From Lentimicrobiaceae bacterium (GTDB lineage: Bacteria > Bacteroidota > Bacteroidia > Bacteroidales > UBA4417), in assembly GCA_041753535.1 (NCBI GenBank), contig JBGSUB010000080.1, positions 92,208 through 156,207 of the forward strand: a stretch of 64,000 nt of DNA, read 5' to 3'. The position numbers and the translations under genes were made by a program. A model generated the notes under the pieces. It made no database searches and was not told the origin of the DNA. It saw only the letters and a list, made by a program, of their open reading frames with translations. Shown one piece after another: positions 3,224 through 44,034 of the stretch; the stretch's first letter is position 1; every line of letters starts with the position of its first letter.

Positions 3224-4671
3224 GCTCCACGCACAATAAAATTCAGTTTGTATTGAACGACCAGATTGTTACGGTTGATTTTAATACAAATCCTGAATTA
3301 AAGCCAACAACCACGGTGCTTAATTACCTTCGGTCGTTACCTGGTCATAAAGGTGTAAAAGAAGGCTGTGCCGAAGGTGATTGTGGCGCATGTACCGTGG
3401 TTATTGCAGAAATTACCGATGAAAAACTTGCATATAAGACCATCGACAGCTGCCTGGTTTTCCTTCCCATGATTCATGGTAAACAACTGATCACTGTTGA
3501 AAATCTGGCGGATGACAACCAGCTTCATCCTGTTCAGCTGGAAATGGTAAACCACAATGGAAGCCAGTGCGGGTATTGCACTCCGGGCGTTGTAATGTCG
3601 TTGTTCGGGCTTTACAAAAACCATCATAACCCGGGTCGGGAAATGATTGAAGATTCACTCACGGGCAATCTTTGCCGTTGCACTGGTTATCAATCAATAA
3701 TTAAAGCCGCTGAACATGCCTGTTCGTGCGTTGATACGGATAAATTCAAACTTCACGAAACAAAAATTATCGATTTGCTCCGTGAAATAAACCGGGATAA
3801 ATCGACTATCGAAGTATCAACTCCTGATCAGAATTATTACAAGCCACTGACATTGATTGCTGCACTTGCATTGCGGCGGAAATATCCACACGCAACACTC
3901 GTTGCCGGTGCTTCAGATACCGCGCTCAGGCAGACAAAAAAGCACGAGTTATTAAACGAAATTATTGATATTTCAGATATTGCTGAACTGAAGTCTTTTG
4001 TTGAAGATGAAAATAGTTTCAAAATCGGCGCTGGCTTGAATCTTGAACAACTGAAGTCACATTCAGTTGAAAAACTTCCTGCTCTGTATAAAATGCTGCA
4101 GATTTTCGGATCACTTCAAATCCGGAACCTGGCAACCATCGGGGGTAATATTGGTTCTGCATCACCCATCGGCGATATGCTTCCGGTGCTCATGGCTTAC
4201 AAAGCACATATTAAATTACAATCGGAAACTTCCGAAAGAATGGTTTGGATTGAAGAATTTATAAAAGGATACCGTTCCACCGATATCCGATCCGACGAAA
4301 TGATTACTACCGTGCATATTCCAAAACTCCCGGGAGATACTTTTGTGTATTCCTATAAAGTTTCGAAGCGGAAAGACCTTGACATCTCAACCGTTAGCGG
4401 AGGGTTTTCACTGAAACTTGAAAATGGACATGTGAAAGAAATAATACTCGCCTTTGGCGGAATGGCCGATCAGCCGAAGCGTGCTTCCGAAACTGAGCAT
4501 TATCTTCAATGGAAGTCCTGGACGAGAACGAATGTGGAACATGCCATAAAAATACTCGTACATGAGTTTACACCCTTGAGTGATGCCCGCTCAGGTGCTG
4601 AATACCGCAGACTTGTTGCCGGCAATCTTTTACTGAAATTCTATACAGAAACTTCAACTCCCGGGCTATGA
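3220..4671 (+). CDS. xdhA: xanthine dehydrogenase small subunit (two 2Fe-2S domains plus FAD-binding domain)
   Basis: Plant-type 2Fe-2S CAEGDCGACTV. Second cluster CGYCTPG...CRCTGY. FAD-binding/CO-dehydrogenase flavoprotein-like region LVAGASD...ATIGGNIGSASPIGD. ATGA overlaps on both sides. Confidence 0.9.
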   Translation: MSSTHNKIQFVLNDQIVTVDFNTNPELKPTTTVLNYLRSLPGHKGVKEGCAEGDCGACTVVIAEITDEKLAYKTIDSCLVFLPMIHGKQLITVENLADDNQLHPVQLEMVNHNGSQCGYCTPGVVMSLFGLYKNHHNPGREMIEDSLTGNLCRCTGYQSIIKAAEHACSCVDTDKFKLHETKIIDLLREINRDKSTIEVSTPDQNYYKPLTLIAALALRRKYPHATLVAGASDTALRQTKKHELLNEIIDISDIAELKSFVEDENSFKIGAGLNLEQLKSHSVEKLPALYKMLQIFGSLQIRNLATIGGNIGSASPIGDMLPVLMAYKAHIKLQSETSERMVWIEEFIKGYRSTDIRSDEMITTVHIPKLPGDTFVYSYKVSKRKDLDISTVSGGFSLKLENGHVKEIILAFGGMADQPKRASETEHYLQWKSWTRTNVEHAIKILVHEFTPLSDARSGAEYRRLVAGNLLLKFYTETSTPGL

Positions 4672-7858: not shown

Positions 7859-9046
7859 ATGGAAGATATTTTTCAAAAAATCAACACCCTCTCACACAAG
7901 TACAGAGACTACACTGCTCAAAACCTCTCAAAACTGGTTAAGATCAAATCGACCAGCATGTACGAAAAAAATGTCCAGCTGGAGCTGAAACGGCAGATGG
8001 AAGAAGCCGGTTTCGACGAAGTTCGTATCGACGGGCTCGGAAATGTGATCGGCCGTATCGGAAACGGAAAACGCATCCTGGCCATTGACGGCCATATGGA
8101 TACCGTGGATGTTGGCAACGCCGCAAACTGGACTTTTGATCCTTTCGGTGGAGAAATAAAAGATGGCTACGTTTTTGGTCGTGGCACCGTGGATCAGAAA
8201 GGTGGTCCGGCAGCAGCTGTTACCAGCGGACGAATTCTGAAAGAACTCGGTTTCGACCGCGACCTTACCGTATTAGTAGTCGGAAGTGTTATGGAGGAAG
8301 ACTGCGACGGACTTTGCTGGAAATACCTCGTTGAAGAAGAAAATGTACGGCCTGATTTTGCCATCAGCACAGAACCAACCAACCTGAATATTTACCGAGG
8401 CCACCGCGGTAGGATGGAAATACTGGTAAGATTTAAAGGCCTTTCCTGTCATGGCAGCGCTCCCGAACGTGGCATCAACGCTATTTATATGGCTGCTAAA
8501 GCGGCTCTCGAAATCGAGAAATTAAATGAACGTTTAGCTACTGACGAATTCCTTGGAAAAGGCTCTGTTACCATTTCGGAAATCAAATCCGGAAGTCCTT
8601 CACTCTGCGCTGTAGCTGATTATGCTGAGTTCCATCTCGACCGTCGCCTTACCTGGGGCGAGACCAAGGAATCAGCCGTTGCCGAAATCCAGGAAATCAT
8701 CAAAGACATGGATGCTACCGTTGAAGTGTTGCATTACGAAGAAGTTGCTTACACCGGCCTGAAATACGGTATGGAGAAATACTATCCGACCTGGAAAATC
8801 CCGGCAGAACATATTGCTGTAACTACCGGTGTGGAAGCTTATAGACAGCTTTTTCACAAAGATCCGATTGTTGATAAATGGACATTTTCCACCAACGGCG
8901 TAACTATTAACGGATATTACGGAATCCCTATCATAGGTTTTGGTCCGGGCAACGAGGTATTTGCCCATGCACCAAACGAAAAAGTTCCTATCGAACATCT
9001 GGAAACCGCAGCAGCTTTTTATGCGGCGTATGCTTTCCTGATATAA
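7859..9046 (+). CDS. ygeY: YgeY-family M20 peptidase-type hydrolase (selenium-metabolism-linked hydrolase family)
   Basis: Collinear with E. coli YgeY as I recall it: EEDCDGLCWKYLVEE, YRGHRGRMEI...SCHGSAPERGINAI, VDKWTFSTNGV...GFGPGNEVFAHAPNEK. Confidence 0.9.
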   Translation: MEDIFQKINTLSHKYRDYTAQNLSKLVKIKSTSMYEKNVQLELKRQMEEAGFDEVRIDGLGNVIGRIGNGKRILAIDGHMDTVDVGNAANWTFDPFGGEIKDGYVFGRGTVDQKGGPAAAVTSGRILKELGFDRDLTVLVVGSVMEEDCDGLCWKYLVEEENVRPDFAISTEPTNLNIYRGHRGRMEILVRFKGLSCHGSAPERGINAIYMAAKAALEIEKLNERLATDEFLGKGSVTISEIKSGSPSLCAVADYAEFHLDRRLTWGETKESAVAEIQEIIKDMDATVEVLHYEEVAYTGLKYGMEKYYPTWKIPAEHIAVTTGVEAYRQLFHKDPIVDKWTFSTNGVTINGYYGIPIIGFGPGNEVFAHAPNEKVPIEHLETAAAFYAAYAFLI

Positions 9047-9244
9047 CAAAATATTCTGTAAAAAACTTTGCGCCCTTAGCGATCAACTTTGCGTCATTGC
9101 GGTAAAATTTTTAACACAAAGACGCAAGGAAAAAGCAAAGAACGCTAAGTGCTTAAAAGTTCATTTTACTGAATATCTGAAAAAAGAAAAAAACATATCT
9201 ACCTCTTTTTACCTATTTCCCCATTAACTGTTAACTACCTAAAT

Positions 9245-31038: not shown

Positions 31039-34000
31039 CTACTTGAATGCTTTCTCAAGCAAGCCATCACCGCTCAGCTTCAGCCTGTCGAAATAGGAAG
31101 GAACTTCCTTACCCATCAGTTTGTCGACATAAATTTTTGCAAGATATTGACCAAGCATAAATCCCTGTCCGCGGAAACCGACAAATAGTCCAAGGTCGGG
31201 ATCGAGAATCATGCGTGGTTCAACATAATAACCGGCCCATACCGCCTGAAAACCAACCGACGAAAGTTGTGGCAACCAGTCGACAAATACCTCAGAAACT
31301 ATTTCGAGAAATTCCTTGGAGTTTATTTTCAGATTTTTATCCGTTTCCATTGGCTCAACCTGGGGCGATGCACAACCGATAATCTGGCCGGTTTCACCCA
31401 ACTGCTGGCCGTAAACGGCAGTAAAACCTTTGTATTTCCGGCGATCGATAAGCATATCGAGCGGTTGCCCGTTAATTCCCATATTTGGCAGGCGCCGGGT
31501 TATAAATGCCTGGTGTTTAACAGGATATAAACCAGTTTCTATACTAAGCTGCTTTGAGAATTTATCCGCTTCGGGGCCTAAAGAGTTAACAAAATGAGGT
31601 GTGTGGAATTCAACATATTTCTTTTCGTGATCCCTGGTCAGGACGATAAATTTTCCGTTTTCTTTTCTAACATCAAGAAGCTGGCAATCTTCATAAATTC
31701 GTCCGCCCTTTTCAACTCCAATTCGTCGGATCAGGTCGATAACACGGCCTGGTGTGGCCTGCCAGCAATCGCGGGTGATAAGCGCAGCCTGGTAATGCTT
31801 GCCAAGGGTTGGATTGATATTAGGCGAAATCTCTTTTTGATAATCTTTTGGGTCAACCATATATGCATCTGACCAGGAACGGGAATCTTCCAAAGCCTTG
31901 AATGTTGCATCATCGTGCGCAAAGTTTACATACCTGGTCGAAAGGAAATTAATATCACGGATTTTCTGCAGTTCCTTGAAAATTTCGAGGTTGTGGCGGG
32001 CTATATCAGCAATTTCGGGTAAACTGAATGCTGGGCGGCCACCGGCAATATTCCGCCATGATGCACCACGTCCATAATTGATCAATGCAGGTTTTAACCC
32101 GGCTTCGGCCATATACCGGAACAATGCGCTTCCACCGATTCCGCCCCCGGCTATCAAAGCGTGAACTTCTACAATTCGTGCAGCGCTTTTGCTGTTGTTG
32201 ATAATGATATTTTCACGTACATTTTTGGGAAACAATTCTCCCATTGCCAACTGGTTGCTTAACGGGCCACGTGGTGTAGCATCGCCAACAATGCTGACTC
32301 CCTTGTTACGCATAACTTGTTTAAGCCTTCGGATGCAGCGCTTTCCGCGGCAGGCACCCATTCCCAAACGAGTGGTATGTTTTATTTCGTCAACCGAAAT
32401 AAATTTTCTGTCACCAATGGTTGTTACAATTTCACTTAAAGTAACATCATCGCAATGGCATACATACATTTCGTGCCCACTTTCGTACGAAGTAGATTTC
32501 ATGACGATGGTTTCGGGGTATTTTTCTTTTAAAATAAATCCGCGGACATCAAGAAGTGTTTCACCATGAATATCAAGGGCTTTCACTCGTGCTATATCTG
32601 TTTTATTCGGTTTTTTAAGTATTTTTTCAATAATGCCGTTACCAAGTATTTTACCCTGGTTATCAACAAGGTACACTTCTTTCTTCTCTTCGGCAAAGTA
32701 CTCGATGGGAAGGAAAACCCAGTCTTTTTTTGGTGCATACCCGAAAATTGCCAGACCAGGGCATTGATACACACAATCCATACAGCCCACACATTTTTCG
32801 AAATCGAGCTGAGGAACCGTGCTTGTTGAGGTTTTGGTAATAGCTCCGTGCGGACAGGCGAATTCGCATGGATTGCAGGCGAAACCATATAAGCAGTCGA
32901 TCTGCACAAATGGTTTTTCATTAAATCGTTCCTTCGTCGGGCGGTATGGTTCCTGTATTACCCGGTGCGGATGTTGCTGCGAATCAATATATTCCTTCGA
33001 AACATTCAGATAAGCATCATAATTGATATTTTCACCCATATCCTGCAATATCTCGTAAGCAACCTGGTTGCCGCGCAACACAGCACTGGTTCCTTCACCT
33101 ATGCGGATCGCATCGCCTGCCCCGTAACAATTGCGCCCAAAAATTTCATTTCCTTTAATGATAAGCTGATCATCAGCTACAAGCCCTGTGCAGATATTTA
33201 TTACATCTATATCCCCTATTATTTTCTCCGTTCCCGGAACGGGTTCAAAGTTTTTACAATCGGCGACAACGGCACCAATAATTCCGGTATTGTCTTCGTT
33301 AGGCAAGGCTTTCAGAAGTATGTGCGATGTCAGAATCGGAATTCCCAAACGACGGACACGGTTAGCCTGTACCGGGAAACCGCCTTCGTTGGGCTGAGCT
33401 TCGATAATGGCTTTAACTTCGGCACCGGCCTGCATGAGCTGATAGGAAGTAAGATAACCAATATTTCCGGCTCCTACAGTAAGCACTTTTTTGCCAAGAA
33501 GGGTGAGTTCGTTGTTCATCATTTTCTGAACAACGGCGGCAGTATAAACGCCAGGCAGATCATCGTTTTCGAATGTCGGCATGAAAGGTACAGCTCCTGT
33601 GGCAACCACCATATATTCGGCATCGACGTAGTAGATTTCTTCCGTTTCGATGTTTTTTACGGCAATTCGCTTGCCTTCGAGTATGTCCCAGACTGTGCTG
33701 TTGAGAAAAATCCCTTCGTGGTTGTCACCGGCTAAAGTTTTAGCAATATCAAACCCGCGCATGCCGCCAAACTTCTTCTCTTTTTCGAAAAAGAAAAACT
33801 GGTGCGTCTGCATCAGGAACTGTCCGCCGATTTTATCATTGTTATCGATAACAATATTGTCAACTCCCTGTTTCAGCAACTCCTCGCGGCAAGCTAATCC
33901 GGCAGGGCCTGCACCGATAATGGCAACGGTTGTTTTATAAACATCAATAGGTTTTTCGGTATTAACCGGACGTGCTTCGGGTGAAAAATCGTGAGGGATT

Positions 34001-34290
34001 TCGCTTACCTCTTTCACATTGTCCACCTTGGTGATGCAGATACGACGGATCTGGCCGTCGACAAGCATTTCGCAGGCACCGCATTTCCCGATTCCGCATT
34101 CGAGGCTTCGCTCGCGATTTGATAAACTATGGCTATGCACAGGGAAACCTGCCTGGTGTAAAGCAGCCGCTATGGTAAATCCTTTTTCGCCGGTTACAGT
34201 TGTTCCTTCAAATTTAAAGCTAAGCTTTTCGAAAACAGGTATTTCAAGGATAGGATGTTCAGTAATTTTATTCATATTCGCTGAATTCAA
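31039..34290 (-). CDS. 1083-aa fused multi-cofactor oxidoreductase: 2Fe-2S (HcnA-like), pyridine-nucleotide-disulfide oxidoreductase, 4Fe-4S dicluster, BFD-like 2Fe-2S (HcnB-like) and DAO-type FAD oxidoreductase (HcnC / sarcosine-oxidase-beta-like)
   Basis: ECGIGKCGACEMLVDG; VAIIGAGPAGLA and LTVGAGNIGYL Rossmann motifs; CNPCEFACP...CVGCMDCVYQCP; CHCDDV...GACRGKRC; ALIAGGGIGGSA followed by a DAO-like C-terminal half. Confidence 0.8.
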   Translation of the reverse strand: MNSANMNKITEHPILEIPVFEKLSFKFEGTTVTGEKGFTIAAALHQAGFPVHSHSLSNRERSLECGIGKCGACEMLVDGQIRRICITKVDNVKEVSEIPHDFSPEARPVNTEKPIDVYKTTVAIIGAGPAGLACREELLKQGVDNIVIDNNDKIGGQFLMQTHQFFFFEKEKKFGGMRGFDIAKTLAGDNHEGIFLNSTVWDILEGKRIAVKNIETEEIYYVDAEYMVVATGAVPFMPTFENDDLPGVYTAAVVQKMMNNELTLLGKKVLTVGAGNIGYLTSYQLMQAGAEVKAIIEAQPNEGGFPVQANRVRRLGIPILTSHILLKALPNEDNTGIIGAVVADCKNFEPVPGTEKIIGDIDVINICTGLVADDQLIIKGNEIFGRNCYGAGDAIRIGEGTSAVLRGNQVAYEILQDMGENINYDAYLNVSKEYIDSQQHPHRVIQEPYRPTKERFNEKPFVQIDCLYGFACNPCEFACPHGAITKTSTSTVPQLDFEKCVGCMDCVYQCPGLAIFGYAPKKDWVFLPIEYFAEEKKEVYLVDNQGKILGNGIIEKILKKPNKTDIARVKALDIHGETLLDVRGFILKEKYPETIVMKSTSYESGHEMYVCHCDDVTLSEIVTTIGDRKFISVDEIKHTTRLGMGACRGKRCIRRLKQVMRNKGVSIVGDATPRGPLSNQLAMGELFPKNVRENIIINNSKSAARIVEVHALIAGGGIGGSALFRYMAEAGLKPALINYGRGASWRNIAGGRPAFSLPEIADIARHNLEIFKELQKIRDINFLSTRYVNFAHDDATFKALEDSRSWSDAYMVDPKDYQKEISPNINPTLGKHYQAALITRDCWQATPGRVIDLIRRIGVEKGGRIYEDCQLLDVRKENGKFIVLTRDHEKKYVEFHTPHFVNSLGPEADKFSKQLSIETGLYPVKHQAFITRRLPNMGINGQPLDMLIDRRKYKGFTAVYGQQLGETGQIIGCASPQVEPMETDKNLKINSKEFLEIVSEVFVDWLPQLSSVGFQAVWAGYYVEPRMILDPDLGLFVGFRGQGFMLGQYLAKIYVDKLMGKEVPSYFDRLKLSGDGLLEKAFK

Positions 34291-34391
34291 AATGTTTTGT
34301 TAATTGCTCTTTTCAGAGTTTCACGGAGCAAAATTATGTTTTTTATCCGCCTGTTATTCAAATAACAGATAATTTAGAAAGAGTATTTATT

Positions 34392-34430
34392 GGAGGGGTT
34401 AGGAGTTAGGGGTTAGGGATTGGGGATGGG
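34392..34430 (+). repeat. G-rich TTAGGG-type word repeat (GGAGGGGTTAGGAGTTAGGGGTTAGGGATTGGGGATGGG)
   Basis: Read directly. The last four G-runs, GGGG-tta-GGG-att-GGGG-at-GGG, fit a canonical G-quadruplex pattern. Lies in the divergent promoter region. Confidence 0.8.
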
Positions 34431-34523
34431 AGAAAAAGAATAATTAAGTTGATGATTGCTTTTATATCCAATAAATTTATATGTATTTTTGAAATAAATT
34501 CTCAGATTAAACTTTGTTAATCT

Positions 34524-35609
34524 ATGGAAAAATTTTATGATAACCTTCTGTTAATCTATTATTCCGGCACCGGTAACTCGAACCGTGTATCGGAATGGAT
34601 ACAGGAAGTTGCACAAAAAGGCGAAATGAAAACCCATATCGCTTCTTTTCATCAATTCAATCCGGATGATATAGCTGACTTTGAAGGAAAAACCCTCATC
34701 GGGTTTTTCTCTGCAACGCATGGCTTTAATATGCCACATTCCATGCTTAAATTCCTTTTTGGATTTAAGTTGCTGAAAGGATCAGATGTATTTATCGGGA
34801 ATACACGAGCCGGGATGAAACTATGGAAACTTTTTATGCCAGGTCTGAGTGGAATTGCCATGTATTTCCCTGCATTGATCATGCTATTAAAAGGATATAA
34901 ACTAAAAGCCATGTACCCGGTTGACCTGCCATCGAACTGGATTTCGCTTCACCCTGGCCTGCGGAAGAAAGTGATTGATTCGATGGCTGAACATTACGAG
35001 AAACTTACAAAAAATTTTGCCGGAAAAGTCCTTTTAGGTAAACGGGTATTTCTTAAATCCTTTGTTCTACTTCCCCTCGACATTTTGGTTGCACCCATAG
35101 CTTTCGGGTATTATTTTGTCGGAAGGTACATAATTGCCAAAACATTTATTGCCAACAGTAACTGTAACCTTTGTGGAATATGTATTGAGCAATGTCCTAC
35201 GAAGTCTATTATTCTGGCCGACAACCGACCTTACTGGAAATTCAGTTGCGAAAGCTGTATGAAATGCATGAATTATTGCCCTCAAAGAGCAATTGAAACA
35301 GCGCATTCTATGTTATTCCTTATACTTCTGGTTCTTATTCAGTTTGTTAACCCTTTCATTTCTGACAAGGTTACCGACTTGGTTGCGTCGTTATTCGGAC
35401 ATTCCCGTGTAGCTTTCGAATCCATTTATTTTGTGATTCAATGGTCGGTTGCATTGTTGTTTTTCTTTTTGGGGTACAAACTGCTGCATTACCTGATGGG
35501 ATTCCCAAGGGTTAATAAAATACTGACTTACACTACATTAACAACATGGAAATTCTGGAGGCGGTATAAAATGCCGAAGCATGTGTCTGCACACCCGAAG
35601 GGTGACTGA
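34524..35609 (+). CDS. EFR1-family ferredoxin (flavodoxin-like domain, 4Fe-4S dicluster, C-terminal TM helices)
   Basis: LLIYYSGTGNSNRV flavodoxin-like N-terminus. CNLCGICIEQCP and CESCMKCMNYCP clusters. Hydrophobic C-terminal segments. Confidence 0.75.
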   Translation: MEKFYDNLLLIYYSGTGNSNRVSEWIQEVAQKGEMKTHIASFHQFNPDDIADFEGKTLIGFFSATHGFNMPHSMLKFLFGFKLLKGSDVFIGNTRAGMKLWKLFMPGLSGIAMYFPALIMLLKGYKLKAMYPVDLPSNWISLHPGLRKKVIDSMAEHYEKLTKNFAGKVLLGKRVFLKSFVLLPLDILVAPIAFGYYFVGRYIIAKTFIANSNCNLCGICIEQCPTKSIILADNRPYWKFSCESCMKCMNYCPQRAIETAHSMLFLILLVLIQFVNPFISDKVTDLVASLFGHSRVAFESIYFVIQWSVALLFFFLGYKLLHYLMGFPRVNKILTYTTLTTWKFWRRYKMPKHVSAHPKGD

Positions 35610-35727: not shown

Positions 35728-38073
35728 CTAAAACATAACCGGTAAATTCATAGCAACTTTCACAGGTTTGCCATTTTGCATACCTGGTTTCCATTTCCCA
35801 CTGGTAAGTTTTATAACTCTTAAGGCTTCCTCATCACAACCGCCACCAATACCGCGAAGGACTTTTACATCAGTAACTTTTCCTTTTTTATCGACTGTGA
35901 AACTGACATAAACACTTCCTTTTATGCCTTTCTCTTTTGCCTGTTGCGGATAGTTAATACTTGCAGCCAGAAATGCCTCTAAACCCATTTCTCCCCCGAT
36001 AAATTCCGGCATGGTTTCCACAACAATAAAAGGCATTTCACTTTCTTCTTTTACCTTGATTACGTCATTGGATTGAACTTCCTGAACGGTACATCCAGTT
36101 GATCTTTTCTCCATTGGAACTTTGTAAGCCGAAATAGTAACACCTCCAACTGCATGATCACTAACACCTTCAGGCAGAGGCAATGGCTGGTTAACTGTTG
36201 TTGAATTGCTTTCCTTGTTACGGATGTCATTATCAATCGCTATAAACGACGTATAGGCCGTCAACAGGTTGTATTTCAGCCCAAGTTCAATAATGGCTGG
36301 CTTATACTCATCTGTGCCATTGTATCCGCTTGATGCATAATCGCTTAATGTTCGTATGCGTTCCCGGGCCCACAGATACCTGATTGCTGAATTCGATTCT
36401 GATATTTTTGCTGTGCTGGCAAGTAGTCTGCTTTCATATTCACCTTCGCCGTTCAGGCCTTTTATAGTAATATTACCCGATGGTGTGCCCCTGTATTTGC
36501 CAAAAATAATCACTGGCCTTTCGGAAAAAACATCCGGAACGCTAAGGGGTTCTAAATCATAAACATCAAAATTGTTGTAGCTTACGCTGATATGCGTTAA
36601 TACAGGGTTTTGAACATATTTCCTGAACTTTTCAGCAATTGCTTCAGCTTCATCGGGTTTTGTTATCACGAAAGGCATTCCCATTCCAACATGAGCCAAG
36701 CCTTCTATTAATAAACGATTAACTGAAGTCCCTATTCCGAAAGCGAAGAAATTGGCTTTGTCCATGTTTTTACGAATAAGGTCAAAAGCTTCCTTTTCGA
36801 CAGTTACATATCCATCGGTTGCAATTACAAAGCTCCGGGCAAAACCTTCAGTACCTTTCAAATTGAGTGCTCTTTTCAAGGCTGGCAACAGTTCAGTACC
36901 ACCTCCACCCTGCTCGTGATCAATAAAATTTATAGCTTTTTCAATATTGGCTCCATTGGCCGAAAGCGAAGTTTCACTTAACAGATTTGAAGCTCCGGCA
37001 AATAATAAAACATTAAAGCGATCAGTCGAATGCAGGTTTCCGATAAGATCGCGAAGCAGCTTTTTCGAAATATCAAGAGGGTAGCCATTCATGGAACCTG
37101 ATACGTCAACAATAAATACGTATTCACGCGGAGGAATTACTGAGAGTTTAACTTGTTTTGGAGGCTGAATCATTGCCAGGAAGAAATTTTCATCCTTTCC
37201 TGGGTAAAACAGTATTCCTGACTGTACCTTATTACCTGCCAGCCGGTATTTCAGGATAAAATCGCGGTTACCACCCTGCTTTTCTTCCGGCTTTAGCCTA
37301 ATAACGGCATCAGAAGGACTGTCAAATTTTATATCCGTTTTGTGCGAGGTACACATTACATCACTTACCGGCATTCCTGCATTAAGATCACATTTCAGGC
37401 TGAAGGTGTACAATGGATTTTCACCTTCGTGTGTATACGGATTGCCAACCCACTGCTCGCGGGGCGTAGCCGTAACTGCAGGCTGGTTGCTATAGCGGGG
37501 ACCAACTACGGTAGGATAAACAAATTCATAAACGCCGTCTTCGGGTACCAGCAGTTCTGTGTACCTGAGTTCAACACGGATGCGATCGCCGGGCATTATA
37601 TTGGCAACGTTCATCTGGAAAACATTGGGCCTTTCCTGCTCCAGCAGCGAAGCACTTTTACCCTGCTGTTTGGCGGCTTCGTAATCGAGTTGTGCTTGTT
37701 CGCGTTCCGAAATTTTTGCAATTATTGTGCGTTCACCTATTGTCATTTTCATACTGTAAACAGCAGCGCGGGTCGAAGCCGGAAACACATAAATCGCTTC
37801 AATCGGTTTTTTGCCTTCGTTGGCATATTCCTGAACCACGCTTACATCGGCTATAACTCCTGCGATATTTACCTCCGCCGAAGTAGCCTTAAGCGGAAGC
37901 TGATCGAGGTTCGGATTATCGGATTTTACAAAGAAATAGGGTGAAAGGGTTTTATCAGGTTCGGACTTCTGAGCGGGAGAGAATTGCCGTGAGGAGGCAA
38001 TCATGGTTCCTGCTGAAATAAGTATTATTGGCAGCGCACCAAATAATGTATGGAAAATAAGTCTTGTTTTCAT
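35728..38073 (-). CDS. VIT domain, von Willebrand A domain and C-terminal TonB_C domain protein
   Basis: N-terminal signal/TM. VIT-like SPYFFVKSD...LPLKATSAEVNIAGVIADVSVVQEY. vWA with MIDAS FIVDVSGSM. C-terminal ETMPEFIGG...GSVYVSFTVDKKGKVTDVKVLRGIGGGCDEEALRVI...KPGMQNGKPV. Confidence 0.85.
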   Translation of the reverse strand: MKTRLIFHTLFGALPIILISAGTMIASSRQFSPAQKSEPDKTLSPYFFVKSDNPNLDQLPLKATSAEVNIAGVIADVSVVQEYANEGKKPIEAIYVFPASTRAAVYSMKMTIGERTIIAKISEREQAQLDYEAAKQQGKSASLLEQERPNVFQMNVANIMPGDRIRVELRYTELLVPEDGVYEFVYPTVVGPRYSNQPAVTATPREQWVGNPYTHEGENPLYTFSLKCDLNAGMPVSDVMCTSHKTDIKFDSPSDAVIRLKPEEKQGGNRDFILKYRLAGNKVQSGILFYPGKDENFFLAMIQPPKQVKLSVIPPREYVFIVDVSGSMNGYPLDISKKLLRDLIGNLHSTDRFNVLLFAGASNLLSETSLSANGANIEKAINFIDHEQGGGGTELLPALKRALNLKGTEGFARSFVIATDGYVTVEKEAFDLIRKNMDKANFFAFGIGTSVNRLLIEGLAHVGMGMPFVITKPDEAEAIAEKFRKYVQNPVLTHISVSYNNFDVYDLEPLSVPDVFSERPVIIFGKYRGTPSGNITIKGLNGEGEYESRLLASTAKISESNSAIRYLWARERIRTLSDYASSGYNGTDEYKPAIIELGLKYNLLTAYTSFIAIDNDIRNKESNSTTVNQPLPLPEGVSDHAVGGVTISAYKVPMEKRSTGCTVQEVQSNDVIKVKEESEMPFIVVETMPEFIGGEMGLEAFLAASINYPQQAKEKGIKGSVYVSFTVDKKGKVTDVKVLRGIGGGCDEEALRVIKLTSGKWKPGMQNGKPVKVAMNLPVMF

Positions 38074-38138
38074 AGCGGGTAAATTTGAAGTAATAAGTGT
38101 TGAAATAATTGTTGAATAATTTCTTCTAAATCAGTTTC

Positions 38139-38822
38139 CTATTGCAATTTGAAGATTACCGGTATCGTGAACGAAACCCTGACCGGTTTGCCTTGCTGGC
38201 TACCAGGTTTCCATGCCGGCAACATGCTGATTACCCGTTCTGCTTCTTTATCACAATCATCGTTTATGCCGCGGAGGGTTTTGATATTGCTGACTTTCCC
38301 ATCTCTTTCAACAACAAAATAGACATATACTGTTCCCTGTATTCCGGTTTGAACAGCTGTGGAAGGAAAATCAATATTTTTCGCAAGAAAGGCTTGCAGC
38401 GCACTGATGCCTCCCGGAAATTCAGGCATAATTTGCACTACAACAAGAGGAATGTCATCTTTAACAGATTCTTCGTCAGCAAGCTTAATTGTTGCAGGAG
38501 GTGTATAAATAGGTATTTCGTACCCGGGATTAATTTCCATGTCAATATCCGGTACATCTTTTGTTGGATCATCGTTACTAACAAAGTTGAGCATGGGTGC
38601 CAAAACAGGTTTAGGCGCCGGTTTCTGGTCCTCTATAACGGTATTTTTAATAACTATATCATCCTCAACACCTTCCCATTGATCAATTACAGCTATTTGT
38701 TTAACCGGCGATTCCCACTCAAAAGCTGCGAGCGACAGCCCGAGTGCAACAATAAGTCCAACCTGCAAAAAAATACTTTTCTTTGGCTCGAGGTCGACGC
38801 GTTTCGATTTCTTTGTTTCCAT
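38139..38822 (-). CDS. tonB: energy transducer TonB
   Basis: N-terminal TM anchor, Pro-containing linker, TonB_C: QIMPEFPGG...GTVYVYFVVERDGKVSNIKTLRGINDDCDKEAERVI...KPGSQQGKPV. Confidence 0.88.
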   Translation of the reverse strand: METKKSKRVDLEPKKSIFLQVGLIVALGLSLAAFEWESPVKQIAVIDQWEGVEDDIVIKNTVIEDQKPAPKPVLAPMLNFVSNDDPTKDVPDIDMEINPGYEIPIYTPPATIKLADEESVKDDIPLVVVQIMPEFPGGISALQAFLAKNIDFPSTAVQTGIQGTVYVYFVVERDGKVSNIKTLRGINDDCDKEAERVISMLPAWKPGSQQGKPVRVSFTIPVIFKLQ

Positions 38823-38950
38823 GGCTAGTGATATTAGAGGGTTAGCAATTTGTGTTTACAAACAGGAGATGCGCGTAAACAGGAATTTCCATAAATGCAT
38901 GAAAAACTTTTTTTAACTGCCTTCGTAACCCTTACTCTAATCACTCTATG

Positions 38951-39021
38951 CATTCTCCCTAAATCCTAAATCCTAAATCCTAACTAACCCCTAACCCCCA
39001 ACCCCTAAATACTATATCTTT
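38951..39021 (+). repeat. 71-nt G-free leader built of CCTAA(A/C) words directly upstream of the sigma-factor start
   Basis: No G between 38951 and 39021. (CCTAAAT)3 then CCTAACTAACCCCTAACCCCCAACCCCTAAAT. TAA triplets fall in all three frames. Confidence 0.9.
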
Positions 39022-39658
39022 GTATAAATTCCTCCAAAACGTGGCCCTCCGTTTTTTCCGTAAAGACGATAAAAAAGAACTGCTTTCTTTACCTGATGAG
39101 CAGCTGGTAGCGCGCTATGCCCGGACACACGACAAGGAAATAATTGGTGTACTTTACGAACGTTATACTCACCTGCTGTTTACAGTTTGTTACAAATACC
39201 TGGGCAACGATGCGGATGCCGAGGATACGGTGATGCTGGTATTCGAAAAGCTTTTCGAGTTGCTTAAGAAGTCAGAAATCAATAATTTTAAAAGCTGGGT
39301 TTATACCATTACCAAAAACGAATGCCTGATGCAGCTCAGGCACAAAAAATCCGGCGAACGTGTAAAAGAAGAGAACTTAAAAAAACTGGACTTTGAAATT
39401 ATGGAATCCGCGGAGCCTGATCATCTGTTAAATGGTGGAAATGGCTCAGGAGAACACCGCATACGCTGCCTCGAAACCGCTATAACCGGTCTGAGTTCAG
39501 AGCAAAAACAATGCATTGAATTGTTTTACCTGGACGAAAAATCGTACCGAGAGGTTGAACAGATAACAGGATTTACCTATAACGAAGTTAAAAGCCATAT
39601 TCAAAACGGCAAACGCAATCTGAAGCAAATGATGGAAAGGATAGAACGCTATGAGTGA
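39020..39658 (+). CDS. RNA polymerase ECF-type sigma-70 family factor
   Basis: Region 2-like YERYTHLLFTVCYKYL...DAEDTVMLVFEKL. Region 4 HTH CIELFYLDEKSYREVEQITGFTYNEVKSHIQNGKRNL. Start uncertain (TTG at 39020 or GTG at 39041). Confidence 0.85.
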   Translation: MYKFLQNVALRFFRKDDKKELLSLPDEQLVARYARTHDKEIIGVLYERYTHLLFTVCYKYLGNDADAEDTVMLVFEKLFELLKKSEINNFKSWVYTITKNECLMQLRHKKSGERVKEENLKKLDFEIMESAEPDHLLNGGNGSGEHRIRCLETAITGLSSEQKQCIELFYLDEKSYREVEQITGFTYNEVKSHIQNGKRNLKQMMERIERYE

Positions 39659-40901
39659 CACGAATAACAAGTCGTCGGCTCCCTTCACGCCCTCCGGTTG
39701 CCTTTCAGGCGATGCGCTGATGCTGTTCGTTACCGGATCGCTTTCGGATTCCGATCTGAAGCTGGCACAGCAACATATCTCTGAATGTCCTTTATGCGCC
39801 GATGCTGCCGACGGGCTAAAAATGTGGCTTCAGGAGCAAACGCCTGATCAGCAGGACTCGGTAAAAGAGTCAGATAGTTTAAAATCCGAAACGTCCGGAT
39901 TATCGGTGAAACCGCCTCTTGAAAAAGGATATAAAAGTAAATCTCCGGGCACAGCAGCTTATAAATTCCATACTCGGACAGAAGGAATTAATGAGCGTAT
40001 TAAGCAACGGGTGAATTTCCATAAAGAAGTTGACGCAGTTCAACACAAACGCAGGCAAATAAAACCCTATGCGTGGATAGGAGCAGCTGCAACGGTAGTG
40101 CTTTTCCTGAGTATTTTTTATATTCTACGTGTACAAAACCTGTTCGACAAACAGGAATTGGCTCGGAAAAATATCATTCAGGAAAAAGAACAGAACTCAA
40201 TTATTGAAAACTCAGACTCCATCTTAAAATCTTCAAACCTTGCGTTAAAAGAGGAAAACCAATTTAAAGTGAAACGGTCCTCCGAAATACCCAATGCTAT
40301 ACCTGTAATTAGTAATGATGAAATATCCAGTTATCAGAATAACAGTATTATAGAAGATTTATCCTTGGAAGAGATAGCTGAAGCAGAAAAGTTTGATACA
40401 TCTGTAACCGAAAACAACAATTCTCCGACTGAAGTAGCTGGTACGGTGATCACAGCTTATAAAGTTCCTTTGGAGAAAAAGTCAACGGGATATGCCGTTA
40501 TGGAAGAAAAACCTGTACCGGAGATTGATGGGGTTAAGGTTAATAAATCGAAAAGAAGTGAGAATAAGGAAAAGGAATCAGAAGAAGTGATTTTTACTAT
40601 TGTTGAACAAATGCCTGAATTTCCGGGCGGACAGGAAAAAATGCTTGATTTTCTCTCTGAAAATCTCAAATACCCCGATTCAGCAAAAGAAAGCGGAATA
40701 CAGGGAACCGTTTATATTTCTTTCGTGGTACGAAAGGATGGCCGGATTTCGGAGGTTAAAGTTTTAAGAAGCATAGGCGGAGGATGCGACGAAGAGGCTG
40801 TGCGCGTTGTAAAAAAAATGCCCCGATGGAAACCTGCAACCCAAAGAGGGAAAAAAGTGGATGTATTGTTTAATTTGCCGATAGTATTTAAACTTGATTA
40901 G
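39651..40901 (+). CDS. anti-sigma factor (zf-HC2-like) with one TM segment and a C-terminal TonB_C domain
   Basis: 8-nt overlap with the sigma gene. HISECPLCADAADG. TM segment YAWIGAAATVVLFLSIFYIL. C-terminal EQMPEFPGG...GTVYISFVVRKDGRISEVKVLRSIGGGCDEEAVRVV...KPATQRGKKV. Confidence 0.8.
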   Translation: MSDTNNKSSAPFTPSGCLSGDALMLFVTGSLSDSDLKLAQQHISECPLCADAADGLKMWLQEQTPDQQDSVKESDSLKSETSGLSVKPPLEKGYKSKSPGTAAYKFHTRTEGINERIKQRVNFHKEVDAVQHKRRQIKPYAWIGAAATVVLFLSIFYILRVQNLFDKQELARKNIIQEKEQNSIIENSDSILKSSNLALKEENQFKVKRSSEIPNAIPVISNDEISSYQNNSIIEDLSLEEIAEAEKFDTSVTENNNSPTEVAGTVITAYKVPLEKKSTGYAVMEEKPVPEIDGVKVNKSKRSENKEKESEEVIFTIVEQMPEFPGGQEKMLDFLSENLKYPDSAKESGIQGTVYISFVVRKDGRISEVKVLRSIGGGCDEEAVRVVKKMPRWKPATQRGKKVDVLFNLPIVFKLD

Positions 40902-41031: not shown

Positions 41032-44000
41032 ATGAAACCAGCATTTACAGTCTTATGCAGTTTACTTTCAGTTTTACTTACCGCAATTATTGTACCTCAA
41101 AAAGCATATTCCCAGGTAGTTATAAATGAATACTCCTGTTCTAATTTCGACAGTTTTCCTGACGACTTTATGGAGTACGGCGACTGGCTGGAATTGTATA
41201 ACACAGGAAGCAATGCTGCCAACATATCAGGATATTACCTCAGCGATAATCCCGCTGCACCGCAGAAATGGCAAATCCCGGCCGGGGCAGTTATTCCTGC
41301 AAACGGCTTTCTTCGTTTTTGGGCATCGGGCCGCGACCTGGCAAATCCCGAAAATTTTCATACCAGTTTTAAATTTACCCAGACCAAAACGACACCTGAG
41401 TCCATAGTTTTTGCCGACCCATCAGGAATAATTATCGACCAGCAACAGCTCTCCATCACACAGAAAGGACATTCGAATGGACGGAAACCAAATGGCGGTA
41501 ACGAATGGAATGTTTTTACAACGCCAACTCCCGGAGGACCCAACAATACAACTGCCTATTTTCGCTATACCGAAAAACCGGTTATGAGTAGTACAAGTGG
41601 TTTCTATGATAACAGCCTGACAGTAAGTATCTCCACCAACGAACCGAACGCTAAAATACGTTACACTACAAATGGCAACGAACCTAATGCAACATCATCG
41701 CAATACACAGCCCCCATATCGGTAAGCGCGACCAAAGTATTAAAAGCCAGGGTCTTCAGCAACGATGCCACCATTCTTCCTGGTCTTATCGAGTTCAACA
41801 CATATTTTATCAACGAAAATTTTACATTACCGGTAATATCTATTTCTGCCAATGACCTGACCACTCTTTTAAATGGAAACGGGAACATCACTCCATGGGG
41901 ATCAATCGAATATTTTAATGCTGATAAAATCCGAACCACAACGGGTTATGGAGAATTCGACAGGCACGGACAGGATTCATGGGCACATCCTCAGCGAAGC
42001 CTCGATTATAAAATGCGCGACGAATGCGGGTACAATTATGCTTTACTCGAAAAGCTGTTTTCGGATACCGACAGGGATGAATATCAGAAAGTGATACTGC
42101 GTGCCTGTGGTGATGATAACTACCCCGGAATTGACTCAAGTGCCCAGGTTCGTGATGATTTTGTACAAACCGTTTCGGTAAAAGCCGGAATGAGTCTCGA
42201 TGAGCGCAAATCGGCACGGTGTATCATTTTTGCAAACGGTCAGTATTGGGGAGTTTATTCTATCCGCGAAAAACCAAATGACCACGATTACACAAAGTAC
42301 TATTACGACCAGGAAAAATATGATTTGTATTACCTGATGCTTTGGGGTAGTACCTGGGCCGAATATGGCGGCCAGGAAGCTTTTGACGACTGGAATGCAC
42401 TTTATACTTACATTATGACCCATAATATGGCGGTTCAGTCGAACTTTGATTATGTTGAGTCGCAGTACGATCCCACAAGCCTGACCAACTATATGCTGCT
42501 CAACTCATTCGTAGTATGTTCCGACTGGCTCAACTGGAATGTGGGATGGTGGAAAGGAACCAATCCAAACGGCAGCCATAAACGCTGGGGATATATGCTC
42601 TGGGACGAAGATGCAACCTTTAGCCATTATATTAATTATACCGGGATTCCGGCCCAGGATCCCTATGTGGCTCCCTGTTTCCAGGAAGATATTACCGGTT
42701 CGTCCGATCCCGAAGGACATGTGAAAGTGCTGAACAGGTTGTTGCAGAATCCGGGCTTTAAGCAATATTACATCTCGCGGTATGCCGATCTGCTGAATAC
42801 CGCTTTTAAACCTTCGAATATGATCCCGCTTTTCGACAGCCTCGTTGGACTGATTGCTCCCGAAATGCAGAGACATTGTACCCGCTGGGGAGGCAATGTT
42901 TCGCAATGGAACGAAAATGTGCAGAAAATACGCAATTTTGTCACAACAAGGTATAGTGTTGTTTCGGCGGGCATTAACGAATGTTATTCGGTAACTGGAC
43001 CATACCAGCTGGTTGTGAATATGGAGCCCCCTGCAGCCGGACAGGTTCAGGTTAATTCGCTTACGCTGAATAATTTGCCATGGTCAGGTAATTATTATGG
43101 TGGAATGGACACAAAACTTTCGGCAATTGAAACAAACCAGCAATATAAATTCGATCACTGGACTGTGAATAACAATGTTATTTTACCTTTTGATACAGCC
43201 CAGAATATCAGGATTAAATTAACTTCGGCTGACACCGTAACGGCCGTATTTATACCCAGGGTTTTCTCTGATTCATTGGTTATCAACGAAATAAATTACA
43301 ATTCCGCGCCCGATTTTGATCCTGGTGATTGGGTTGAATTGTACAATCCTATGGATCATTCAGTGGATATTTCAGGATGGGTTTTTAAGGATGAAGACGA
43401 TCTACACGCCTATACATTTGCTTCCGGCACACAAATTCCGTCGAAGGGCTATATTGTTATTGCTAATGATATGACGGCATTTCATAATTTATTCCCAATG
43501 GTTACCAATTATGTCGGTTCTATGGGATTTGGATTTGCCGGTGGCGGAGAACTGTTAAGGGTTTTTAATAATTCAGGAACCCTGATAGATACTGTTAATT
43601 ACGATGATGTTGCTCCCTGGCCAACCCGGCCTGACGGTCAAGGTGCGACCTTGGAATTGATTTCGCCTGACCTGGATAATGCCCTTGGCCAGAACTGGAA
43701 AGCCAGCGGAATAACAACGCATGGAACACCGGGTGAAGGAAACAGTATAAATGTTGGGCTCGATACACCTGTTGCCGCCGAAAAACTTACATTAACCATT
43801 TATCCGAATCCTTTCCGTAACACGGCAATGTTGAAAATTAATACGGCCTCCGTGATTAATGACGGTATGTTGGAAATCTACAACCTTGCCGGGCCGAAAG
43901 TTCAGCAGTTTGATCATATTTCATCGAAGCAGGTGGAGCTTAACAGAAGCGGGCTTCAGCCGGGTTGTTATATTCTCCGGTTTACAAATCTTGCCGGAAA

Positions 44001-44034
44001 CCTTACAGGCGTTGGAAAGATGATGGTGGAATGA
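41032..44034 (+). CDS. secreted CotH-family protein with two lamin-tail (LTD) domains, a chitobiase/hexosaminidase-C-like domain and a T9SS C-terminal sorting domain
   Basis: Signal peptide. LTD VVINEYS...GDWLELYNTG...ISGYYLSD and again LVINEINYNS...GDWVELYNPMD...ISGWVFKD. CotH-like core (RSLDYKMRDE...YWGVYSIREKPN). C-terminal LTIYPNPFRNTAMLKI... Confidence 0.8.
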   Translation: MKPAFTVLCSLLSVLLTAIIVPQKAYSQVVINEYSCSNFDSFPDDFMEYGDWLELYNTGSNAANISGYYLSDNPAAPQKWQIPAGAVIPANGFLRFWASGRDLANPENFHTSFKFTQTKTTPESIVFADPSGIIIDQQQLSITQKGHSNGRKPNGGNEWNVFTTPTPGGPNNTTAYFRYTEKPVMSSTSGFYDNSLTVSISTNEPNAKIRYTTNGNEPNATSSQYTAPISVSATKVLKARVFSNDATILPGLIEFNTYFINENFTLPVISISANDLTTLLNGNGNITPWGSIEYFNADKIRTTTGYGEFDRHGQDSWAHPQRSLDYKMRDECGYNYALLEKLFSDTDRDEYQKVILRACGDDNYPGIDSSAQVRDDFVQTVSVKAGMSLDERKSARCIIFANGQYWGVYSIREKPNDHDYTKYYYDQEKYDLYYLMLWGSTWAEYGGQEAFDDWNALYTYIMTHNMAVQSNFDYVESQYDPTSLTNYMLLNSFVVCSDWLNWNVGWWKGTNPNGSHKRWGYMLWDEDATFSHYINYTGIPAQDPYVAPCFQEDITGSSDPEGHVKVLNRLLQNPGFKQYYISRYADLLNTAFKPSNMIPLFDSLVGLIAPEMQRHCTRWGGNVSQWNENVQKIRNFVTTRYSVVSAGINECYSVTGPYQLVVNMEPPAAGQVQVNSLTLNNLPWSGNYYGGMDTKLSAIETNQQYKFDHWTVNNNVILPFDTAQNIRIKLTSADTVTAVFIPRVFSDSLVINEINYNSAPDFDPGDWVELYNPMDHSVDISGWVFKDEDDLHAYTFASGTQIPSKGYIVIANDMTAFHNLFPMVTNYVGSMGFGFAGGGELLRVFNNSGTLIDTVNYDDVAPWPTRPDGQGATLELISPDLDNALGQNWKASGITTHGTPGEGNSINVGLDTPVAAEKLTLTIYPNPFRNTAMLKINTASVINDGMLEIYNLAGPKVQQFDHISSKQVELNRSGLQPGCYILRFTNLAGNLTGVGKMMVE

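Follow-up and report, generated by a model that had tools for sequence, protein, structure and literature searches.

The 64,000-nucleotide stretch analyzed here (the window; positions 92,208–156,207 of the forward strand of contig JBGSUB010000080.1, Lentimicrobiaceae bacterium assembly GCA_041753535.1) carries at positions 35,728–40,901 a cluster of four genes that encode an extracytoplasmic function (ECF) sigma factor, its putative anti-sigma factor, a small TonB paralogue, and a protein in which VIT and vWA domains are joined to a TonB C-terminal (TonB_C) domain. The anti-sigma factor and the small TonB end in a TonB_C domain as well. We find that the cassette is real, widespread in the Bacteroidota, and uncharacterized. 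We lean, with confidence only a little better than even, toward an account in which it is an ECF circuit whose anti-sigma factor would sense its signal by means of TonB_C, and whose outputs would be the tonB and VIT-vWA-TonB_C genes together with the anti-sigma factor itself. This account was built from the domain architecture of the proteins, the synteny of their genes, an oriented promoter-like motif that is under selection at the nucleotide level, and TonB-box-like segments that accompany the TonB_C domains, all of which are direct observations. Compared loci and contigs are labeled with L-numbers (L001, L003, L084 and so on), and WIN denotes the window locus.

The sigma gene (39,041–39,658, plus strand; open reading frame (ORF) list and public gene call) encodes 205 residues from a GTG at 39,041, in a frame that is open from a TTG at 39,020. 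It overlaps by 8 nucleotides (39,651–39,658) the gene for the 416-residue anti-sigma factor with its TonB-like periplasmic part (39,651–40,901, plus strand), which was delimited from the ORF list and from full-length orthologues of 36–77% identity. On the minus strand lie the genes for the small TonB paralogue (38,139–38,822; 227 residues; ORF list and Pfam TonB_C) and for the VIT-vWA-TonB_C protein (35,728–38,073; 781 residues; ORF list and Pfam). The four ORFs and the overlap are exactly where a first-pass annotation of the bare sequence had placed them, and its VIT, vWA, and TonB_C calls were borne out by profile searches against Pfam and NCBIfam, the last of them in all three proteins.

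The divergent operon is preceded by an ECF-type promoter-like dyad. The motif, TATGGAAW-N14-GCATC, was obtained by unbiased counting of gapped dyads in 87 sigma-upstream regions, and in its strict form it has 75 matches in 3.9 Mb of retrieved sequence; 20 shuffles that kept the composition gave 0–5, and the reversed pattern gave 1. Its sole perfect occurrence in the window is TATGGAAATTCCTGTTTACGCGCATC (38,868–38,893, minus strand; motif scan), the 3′ end of which is 46 nucleotides upstream of the TonB ATG. Across loci the dyad is strictly oriented, and its 3′ end is mostly found 30–60 nucleotides upstream of the first start codon of the divergent operon, be it that of TonB or of VIT-vWA-TonB_C. 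It also precedes VIT-vWA-TonB_C genes with no sigma gene within 10 kb (L005, L011, L014, L016, L017, and L019) and, with minor variation (GTATC, TGTGGAA), a YfbK-type vWA gene in 12 of 13 loci. A position weight matrix recovers variants in most of the remaining loci with scores of 16–22, the background having a median of 1.8 and a 95th percentile of 13.7. In operons from outside the Bacteroidota the dyad is absent at comparable positions, with two stray matches only. With GGAA in its upstream half, a spacer of about 15, and a short downstream half, and in view of its orientation and distance from the start codon, the motif fits an ECF-type promoter, and the copy at 38,868–38,893 is predicted to be the promoter of the tonB/VIT-vWA-TonB_C operon. 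Given this conserved upstream element, TonB and VIT-vWA-TonB_C look like outputs of the sigma factor and not only co-sensors.

Two other genes preceded by the dyad were encountered. In L149 (236–4,786) it lies divergent from the sigma gene, 69 nucleotides upstream of the gene for a 1,493-residue alpha-2-macroglobulin-like protein with MG2, A2M, and TED domains and an inserted CarboxypepD_reg domain, which hints that the family generally targets large proteins with a binding or trapping role in the periplasm. In L161 (974–1,772) it lies 46 nucleotides upstream of a 250-residue ORF that has CarboxypepD_reg and Plug domains only (the N-terminus of a transporter, with no barrel) and ends 10 nucleotides before the sigma gene. 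This ORF could be a stand-alone periplasmic protein bearing a TonB box, or a truncated gene.

A further copy of the dyad is embedded in the sigma gene. In the window it reads TATGGAATCCGCGGAGCCTGATCATC (39,400–39,425, plus strand; one mismatch) and occupies codons of the sigma linker, 225 nucleotides upstream of the anti-sigma ATG. Many sigma genes carry it on the sense strand, 199–229 nucleotides (mode 211–214) upstream of the anti-sigma start, and they include members of both subfamilies, the one whose anti-sigma factors end in TonB_C and the one in which they end in tetratricopeptide (TPR) repeats. The embedded dyad encodes the linker motif x-(M/V)-E-x5-H-(L/Q/H/P). That it is a by-product of protein conservation was ruled out by codon analysis of 81 distinct sigma genes. 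At codon 2, before the M/V position, the third base is T in 71 of the 81 despite about ten different amino acids at that site; the motif Glu (codon 4) is GAA in 78 of 81, while Glu at codon 9, before the His, is GAG in 6 of 7; the His is CAT in 71 genes versus CAC in 4; and the first base of codon 11, after the His, is C in 66 of 81, across Leu, His, Gln, and Pro. Since what is conserved is the nucleotide sequence, including synonymous sites and codons whose residue varies, the intragenic dyad is best explained as a functional DNA element, and it is probably a sigma-dependent promoter that would supply extra anti-sigma factor as feedback. It provides a clean example of a regulatory element that constrains codon usage and protein sequence family-wide.

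The consensus of the Bacteroidota housekeeping −7 element is TAnnTTTG. A match to it, TATCTTTG (39,015–39,022, plus strand), is found 19 nucleotides upstream of the sigma GTG and is kept at the same place in WIN, L084, L085, L087, L001, and L003; more generally, the −7 element is enriched 55–110 nucleotides upstream of the start of the sigma match. The ECF-type dyad precedes the sigma gene only rarely (L138, L146), so positive autoregulation seems absent, and the sigma factor looks to be made constitutively from a housekeeping-type promoter. A candidate autoregulatory promoter for the sigma gene, TGAAAAAC-N16-CGTAAC (38,900–38,929, plus strand), was set aside, since inspection by eye showed no conservation of it in close relatives.

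The sigma factor matches Pfam Sigma70_r2 (6.9e-14) and Sigma70_r4_2 (1e-10), with regions 3 and 1 absent in Pfam, and scores 82.4 bits against TIGR02937 (cutoff 42.9). With sigma-2 and sigma-4 domains only, in about 200 residues, it is an ECF (group 4) sigma factor, and it has the adjoining downstream anti-sigma gene expected of that group, the same pairing being present in essentially all of ~90 orthologous loci. The cytoplasmic domain of the anti-sigma factor (residues 11–63; 39,681–39,839, plus strand; alignment, profile, and fold) contains C17, H42, C46, C49, and G55, and the window protein has the sequence HISECPLC, a literal H-x3-C-x2-C. Across 33 anti-sigma sequences H42, C46, C49, and G55 show no variation, and at least 90% have C17. 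The zf-HC2 model (PF13490) is matched by 24 of 33 family N-terminal domains, and a family profile run against the Protein Data Bank (PDB) retrieved the anti-sigma factors DdvA (0.0017) and RslA (0.0077). In the AlphaFold model residues 11–63 form three helices at a predicted local distance difference test (pLDDT) score of 83–90, and Foldseek matched this model to RslA (probability 0.98) as well as to RsiW and ChrR. The zf-HC2-like character read from the bare sequence is therefore upheld for the family and by fold, and it is not recovered by Pfam from the window protein alone (E = 0.18, below threshold). Because family alignment, PDB profile, and fold agree, assignment to the zf-HC2 class I anti-sigma type holds at the family level and in the modeled structure. 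By analogy with this class, the protein would bind and inhibit its sigma factor.

A single transmembrane helix, YAWIGAAATVVLFLSIFYILRV (residues ~139–163; 40,065–40,139, plus strand; hydrophobicity within an AlphaFold2 helix at 102–186), follows. W142, A146, and A147 are invariant in the orthologue alignment, and the helix does not display the TonB-type S-x3-H/Q pattern. On the periplasmic side, the only domain found with Pfam and NCBIfam is TonB_C (residues 338–415; 40,662–40,895, plus strand; Pfam 1.5e-21); there was no match to FecR, DUF4880, or DUF4974, in agreement with the earlier view that this end is not of the FecR type. A PDB sequence search matched it to Pseudomonas aeruginosa TonB (3.6e-6), and its model (pLDDT >90) has as its best Foldseek match TonB bound to FoxA (6i97_D; TM-score 0.75, root-mean-square deviation 1.8 Å). 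In several anti-sigma factors the region before TonB_C has a match in the linker of the small TonB, which makes the periplasmic half of the protein essentially that of a TonB. Lacking a TonB-type N-terminal anchor, the anti-sigma factor is a TonB_C-domain protein and not a TonB energy transducer proper. Its relatives comprise dozens of full-length orthologues (36–77% identity) beside many Peptidase_M56-TonB_C proteins. We found no published anti-sigma factor carrying TonB_C in the literature searched.

Upstream of TonB_C, the anti-sigma factor and the VIT-vWA protein have a motif in common that is not present in the small TonB. In both it is a degenerate segment resembling a TonB box and the start of a transporter plug, recognized by alignment only: EVAGTVITAYKVPLEKKSTGYAV in the anti-sigma factor (residues 261–283; 40,431–40,499, plus strand) and GGVTISAYKVPMEKRSTGCTV in the VIT-vWA protein (residues 643–663; 36,085–36,147, minus strand). 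In orthologous anti-sigma factors of 416–437 residues the segment reads VEGVVVTALGI(T/S)R(D/E)KKSLGY. The sole PDB match of the L084 segment, a weak one (E = 0.21), is to residues 22–43 of the SusC-like protein BT_2264, QIDEVVVTAMGIKRSEKALGYA, which we take to be the TonB box of that transporter. In the more distantly related anti-sigma factors of L157, L145, L129, and L113 the ~100 residues before TonB_C match positions 3–95 of TIGR04056 with E values of 3e-28 to 2e-15; these positions are presumably the N-terminal extension and TonB box of SusC/RagA transporters. A loose TonB-box regular expression had 10 matches in 9,081 ORFs, 7 of which are in an anti-sigma factor or VIT-vWA protein just upstream of TonB_C. 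With such segments inside both proteins, the interaction of TonB_C with a TonB box may be partly internal to the module.

The small TonB has the layout of a TonB: a signal-anchor transmembrane helix (residues ~16–37), a linker, and a C-terminal TonB_C (residues 149–226; Pfam PF03544, 1.3e-16). Its helix has a conserved FLQ(I/V)G...AFEW motif in 13 orthologues. The three TonB_C domains of the window are 40–53% identical to one another, as befits the paralogues they were taken for. A comparison aimed at concerted evolution gave a mixed picture: most of the domains cluster according to protein type, and some pairs from one genome are unusually alike. In L001, a Lentimicrobiaceae metagenome-assembled genome (MAG), TonB_C of the anti-sigma factor (8,001–9,185) and of TonB (3,889–4,677) are 76% identical, the usual value being 45–55%, which suggests recent domain exchange between the two genes.

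The VIT-vWA-TonB_C protein consists of a full-length VIT match (residues 61–171; 37,561–37,893, minus strand; PF08487, 1e-34), a vWA domain (residues 319–475; 36,649–37,119, minus strand; Pfam VWA, VWA_2, and VWA_3, the last at 2e-14), and TonB_C (residues 706–781; 35,731–35,958, minus strand; PF03544, 4.3e-20; TIGR01352, 8.7e-12). Its metal ion-dependent adhesion site (MIDAS) is intact: D323-x-S325-x-S327, T393, and D420 do not vary among 12 diverse orthologues (58–79% identity). The N-terminus has a signal-like hydrophobic segment with no lipobox Cys, from which the protein is probably secreted. As this signal-like segment is all it has in place of a TonB anchor, it too is a TonB_C-domain protein and not a TonB proper. 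It falls outside TIGR03788, for the body scores 412.7 bits (cutoff 551.65) with a match that ends at residue 651, and the C-terminus is TonB_C with no sortase signal. The nearest solved relatives of the body are PARP4 (2e-32) and ITIH4 (2e-23). The first-pass annotation regarded a VIT-vWA protein ending in TonB_C as unusual. This exceptional status was ruled out by the abundance of such proteins, as relatives with 57–100% identity to the window protein form at least 120 clusters at 90% identity, of which only one does not list PF03544, and a separate scan of species-representative genomes (one genome per species) found at least 595 relatives.

The sigma and anti-sigma-TonB_C genes occur within 5 kb in ~11 of ~29 Bacteroidota VIT-vWA-TonB_C loci (L001/L004, L007, L012, L020 from Chitinophagales, L022, L027, L031, L032, L070, L073, and L076). 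Some of these also have the small TonB, and gene order varies. All four genes, or three of them, are again found together in a Lentimicrobiaceae MAG, in MAGs of Bacteroidales and Chitinophagales, and on many metagenome contigs, and L003, a 3-Mb genome, has TonB, sigma, and anti-sigma with no VIT-vWA gene. In a sigma-centered metagenome scan the sigma gene was essentially always followed by an anti-sigma gene of the same type, with a TonB_C tail in ~24 loci and TPR repeats in others. A divergent vWA gene (VIT-vWA-TonB_C with or without TonB, or YfbK-type) is present, by our count, in ~21 of the 52 loci for which 1 kb or more of upstream sequence is available; the YfbK-type neighbor is a CarboxypepD_reg/vWF_A/VWA/YfbK_C protein. 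When neighbors were clustered (557 ORFs from 40 loci), nothing beyond the sigma factor and the TonB_C proteins was conserved in more than 7 of the 40. No transporter gene was conserved in cis in these loci, found among the ten window ORFs tested with Pfam, or detected with a TonB-box regular expression run over the ORFs and the whole window. The two findings that the first-pass annotation had named as fatal to its reading, TonB_C calls without support and an absence of synteny, are the opposite of what we obtained: the pair of sigma and anti-sigma-TonB_C genes recurs beside TonB and/or VIT-vWA-TonB_C on many Bacteroidota contigs, and synteny in related genomes is far above chance.

In Desulfobacterota, Syntrophales, Nitrospirota, and Acidobacteriota the VIT-vWA body ends in an AgmX/PglI domain, a relative of TonB_C. 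Operons outside the Bacteroidota combine an ECF sigma factor, a zf-HC2 anti-sigma factor whose periplasmic end is DUF4349-like and not TonB_C, and a VIT-vWA-AgmX/PglI protein. Examples from Desulfobacterota and Syntrophales are L082 (8,185–12,262), L055, L049, L037, and L069, in which the AgmX/PglI tail is of the GltG/GltJ type. They are a cross-phylum counterpart of the module and appear equally uncharacterized. Within the Bacteroidota, L154 (2,117–3,688) has a BlaR1-like Peptidase_M56/CarboxypepD_reg/TonB_C protein two genes from a YfbK-type sigma module, and therefore a second kind of TonB_C-tailed signal transducer in the same neighborhood.

The regulatory architecture described above is well supported computationally, and the signal and mechanism that follow are put forward as hypotheses. 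The sigma factor would be transcribed from the housekeeping-type promoter at TATCTTTG and be translationally coupled to a single-pass, zinc-finger, class I-like anti-sigma factor, which would hold it at the inner membrane while presenting a TonB-like periplasmic part, a long disordered linker followed by TonB_C. At rest this TonB_C would be idle or latched onto the in-cis TonB-box mimic. TonB-box strands are the ligand class of TonB_C domains. The signal is most likely the occupancy of the anti-sigma TonB_C by a TonB box, the least certain step of the scheme: strands from ligand-loaded, unserved transporters, from the internal mimic, or from other or foreign periplasmic TonB-box proteins would engage the domain. 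By analogy with RseA, RsiW, and FecR, the sigma factor would then be released by regulated proteolysis. Released sigma would initiate at TATGGAAW-N14-GCATC in front of the divergent tonB/VIT-vWA-TonB_C operon and would also fire the embedded copy, providing extra anti-sigma factor for negative feedback and reset. The response would supply more TonB, together with a MIDAS-bearing periplasmic protein that may dock via TonB_C and bind something through its MIDAS. The presence of TonB among the outputs would fit a supply-and-demand loop.

Several observations weigh against this account. Recognition of the dyad by sigma factors of this family is suggested by co-distribution only, and the intragenic copy of the window has a T for the G before CATC. 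Many family members have TPR repeats in place of TonB_C, which makes TonB_C one of several interchangeable sensor tails that is not essential to the core logic of the family. The TonB-box-like segment is facultative, as it is missing from orthologous anti-sigma factors of ~394 residues (e.g., L001), and in the window protein it is degenerate and resembles the transporter segment in alignment, with no match to the TIGR04056 model. In the AlphaFold2 monomer the strands at residues 260–269 have a pLDDT of ~40, a value that gives no support to docking of the segment on TonB_C in cis. Roughly half of the VIT-vWA-TonB_C genes lack a neighboring sigma gene. Finally, the helix of the small TonB reads S16-x3-Q20-x6-L27-x2-S30, with Gln or Glu conserved where Escherichia coli has His20 in its S-H-L-S motif (S-x3-H-x6-L-x3-S, which couples to ExbB/ExbD), and exbBD genes are neither conserved in the 40 loci nor present among the ten window ORFs tested, although the partners may be encoded elsewhere. 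The small TonB is accordingly a putative energized TonB only.

One variant would dispense with an outer-membrane transducer altogether. In such a self-contained “plug-and-socket” switch, the anti-sigma factor would carry both the mimic (plug) and TonB_C (socket), either of which would be engaged by the energized TonB paralogue or by foreign TonB-box proteins such as bacteriocins entering the periplasm, and force or competition would lead to proteolysis and sigma release. The sigma factor would then raise the production of TonB, of the VIT-vWA-TonB_C protein as a MIDAS-bearing trap docked via TonB_C, and, from the embedded promoter, of anti-sigma factor. We hold this version to be improbable; it would represent a new coupling of TonB activity or TonB hijacking to transcription.

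The first-pass annotation had proposed a different arrangement, in which the anti-sigma factor and the VIT-vWA protein are parallel sensors that compete with TonB for the boxes of ligand-loaded transporters. It draws on the fact that all three TonB_C domains are bona fide, with a YP motif and a fold nearest to that of TonB-box-bound TonB, and the similarity of TonB_C domains within a genome (46–55%) equals that between orthologues of different genomes, which is compatible with a common target. However, judged by the dyad, TonB and VIT-vWA-TonB_C are outputs controlled by the sigma factor, and VIT-vWA-TonB_C and the sigma pair often occur one without the other. Nor is a transporter gene conserved in cis, in the 40 loci or among the window ORFs tested, and a cis transporter is to our knowledge a feature of every known cell-surface signaling system. 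We consider parallel sensing unlikely; competition for TonB boxes is plausible as one form that the input step may take.

Alternatively, TonB_C might be a passive docking or anchoring device, attaching to peptidoglycan, the outer membrane, or another TonB_C, within a generic envelope-stress ECF circuit that deploys large periplasmic binding or trapping effectors and whose signal would not involve recognition of TonB boxes. The interchangeability of the sensor tail with TPR repeats and of the divergent target with a YfbK-type vWA gene would be expected, as would the alpha-2-macroglobulin-like protein preceded by the motif in L149. Proteobacterial VIT-vWA relatives use a sortase anchor (TIGR03788), and such swaps suggest a C-terminal anchoring device. 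Yet the repeated placement of a SusC N-terminal extension and TonB box beside TonB_C (E values down to 3e-28) is hard to explain in this way, and so is the recurrence of a TonB paralogue in the putative regulon. On balance we find a purely passive role rather doubtful.

It could also be argued that the dyad acts at the RNA level or serves an unrelated regulator as operator or promoter, given that its link to the sigma factor is one of distribution and GCATC is not the commonest form of an ECF −10 element. The dyad is, however, asymmetric and strictly oriented, has −35/−10-like spacing, lies 30–60 nucleotides upstream of start codons, and is absent at comparable positions in operons from outside the Bacteroidota. 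It co-distributes with this sigma family in both subfamilies, including the copy inside the sigma gene, and we judge the idea decidedly improbable. Accidental adjacency of four unrelated genes with a common domain has next to no chance of being correct: TonB_C is very common in the Bacteroidota, and the closest relatives share flanking genes so that some synteny reflects descent, but across Bacteroidota orders the arrangement survives changes of gene order and of flanking genes, in other phyla it takes operon form, and it comes with a common regulatory motif, so that synteny and motif counts refute it.

Compared with known systems, our favored ECF circuit resembles FecI/FecR/FecA signaling and the SusC-linked ECF/anti-sigma pairs of Bacteroides polysaccharide utilization loci in having a single-pass inner-membrane anti-sigma factor whose periplasmic end is tied to the TonB/TonB-box machinery. 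Exposure of a TonB box is part of the FecIRA signaling logic. Unlike those systems, the module has no FecR/DUF4974 sensor, no transporter with an STN signaling domain, and no transporter in cis, and it belongs to neither group; its anti-sigma factor is of the zf-HC2 class I type and carries TonB_C, often with a TonB-box-like segment (for a review of cell-surface signaling, see PMC9249621). Class I anti-sigma factors (RslA, RsrA, ChrR, RsiW, and DdvA) likewise have an N-terminal helical H-x3-C-x2-C domain and a gene that overlaps that of the upstream ECF sigma factor, whereas the domain of the module is short (three confident helices), has an extra conserved SGCL motif (C17), and is followed by a TonB-like tail that is not known from any of these proteins. 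Few Bacteroidota ECF sigma factors have recognizable class I anti-sigma factors nearby (PMC7406223).

A sigma-dependent promoter before the anti-sigma gene has a precedent in rpoE-rseABC of E. coli, where a second sigmaE promoter upstream of rseA gives negative feedback (PMC1312014). The copy of the module is a predicted one; in contrast to rpoE, its sigma gene is mostly without a motif of its own, and the embedded promoter constrains sigma codons and the linker. The combination of a membrane transducer N-terminus with a periplasmic TonB_C, sometimes with CarboxypepD_reg, is also seen in BlaR1-like Peptidase_M56-TonB_C proteins and in the “TonB with extra domains” proteins of Bacteroides thetaiotaomicron (TonB1, 7, 10, and 11). 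Among TonB_C-tailed signal transducers the Peptidase_M56-TonB_C proteins come nearest to the module. The output of the module is an anti-sigma factor and an ECF sigma factor, versus an M56 protease and a BlaI-type repressor for the Peptidase_M56 proteins. “TonB with extra domains” proteins have been proposed, and never shown, to signal, and the roles of these and other Bacteroidota TonB paralogues are uncharacterized (PMC10350073).

The VIT-vWA body is homologous to that of TIGR03788 proteins, of VIT-vWA proteins with AgmX/PglI tails, and of ITIH and PARP4, and in bacteria these proteins have a C-terminal anchoring or docking module. They differ from the protein of the module, whose C-terminus is a canonical TonB_C and whose gene is divergent from a sigma gene and preceded by the dyad. 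A 2025 study proposed vWA domains as TonB-like “force transducers” and linked vWA to TonB/TolA in the Bacteroidota and other phyla (PMC12204202). In that proposal vWA replaces the C-terminal domain of TonB on a motor-coupled membrane protein, whereas here VIT-vWA is N-terminal to TonB_C on a protein that is probably secreted, with no motor genes nearby. In group ECF289 an anti-sigma factor is fused to vWF and DUF3520 domains (PMC7826278), and this fusion supports, in Rosetta-stone fashion, a functional tie between anti-sigma factors and vWA proteins. In the literature searched we found no description of the dyad, of the TonB-box mimic, of VIT-vWA proteins with ECF sigma factors, or of YfbK with sigma factors. 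The module is a testable case: its sigma/anti-sigma pair is defined, a promoter motif can be predicted for it, and the regulon expected from that motif is small (a TonB paralogue, VIT-vWA-TonB_C, and the anti-sigma factor). If the anti-sigma factor does sense TonB-box availability, the circuit would match TonB supply to transporter demand, or detect toxins that hijack TonB, without a signaling transporter.

Some further features of the locus were recorded. Tandem heptamer arrays (CCTAAAT ×3.7, then CTAACCC ×3.6; 38,958–39,008; Tandem Repeats Finder) sit between the divergent ECF-type promoter-like motif and the housekeeping-type −7 box of the sigma gene. A C/A/T-rich stretch of this kind is partly common to L084 and L003, and the arrays could be a spacer or an element of variable length. 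Directly downstream of the anti-sigma gene (41,032–44,034, plus strand) is a gene for a 1,000-residue protein with a CotH domain, two Lamin-tail domains, CHB_HEX_C_1, and a type IX secretion system sorting tail. A CotH/Lamin-tail gene is also 3′ of the anti-sigma gene in L003; as no promoter motif precedes it, it is probably a neighbor by descent. On the other side of the module, 31,039–35,609 contains a gene for a 1,083-residue Fer2_4/Pyr_redox_2/DAO fusion (minus strand) and one for an EFR1-family flavodoxin-ferredoxin protein (34,524–35,609, plus strand). Both hold the same position in L001 and L003, with a HepT/nucleotidyltransferase toxin-antitoxin pair inserted between them in L001. Finally, an ORF at 17–2,083 (plus strand), ~35 kb from the module and with no copy of the motif nearby, ends in a bacterial alpha-2-macroglobulin MG10 domain; it probably represents the C-terminus of a large alpha-2-macroglobulin whose remainder lies beyond the window edge.

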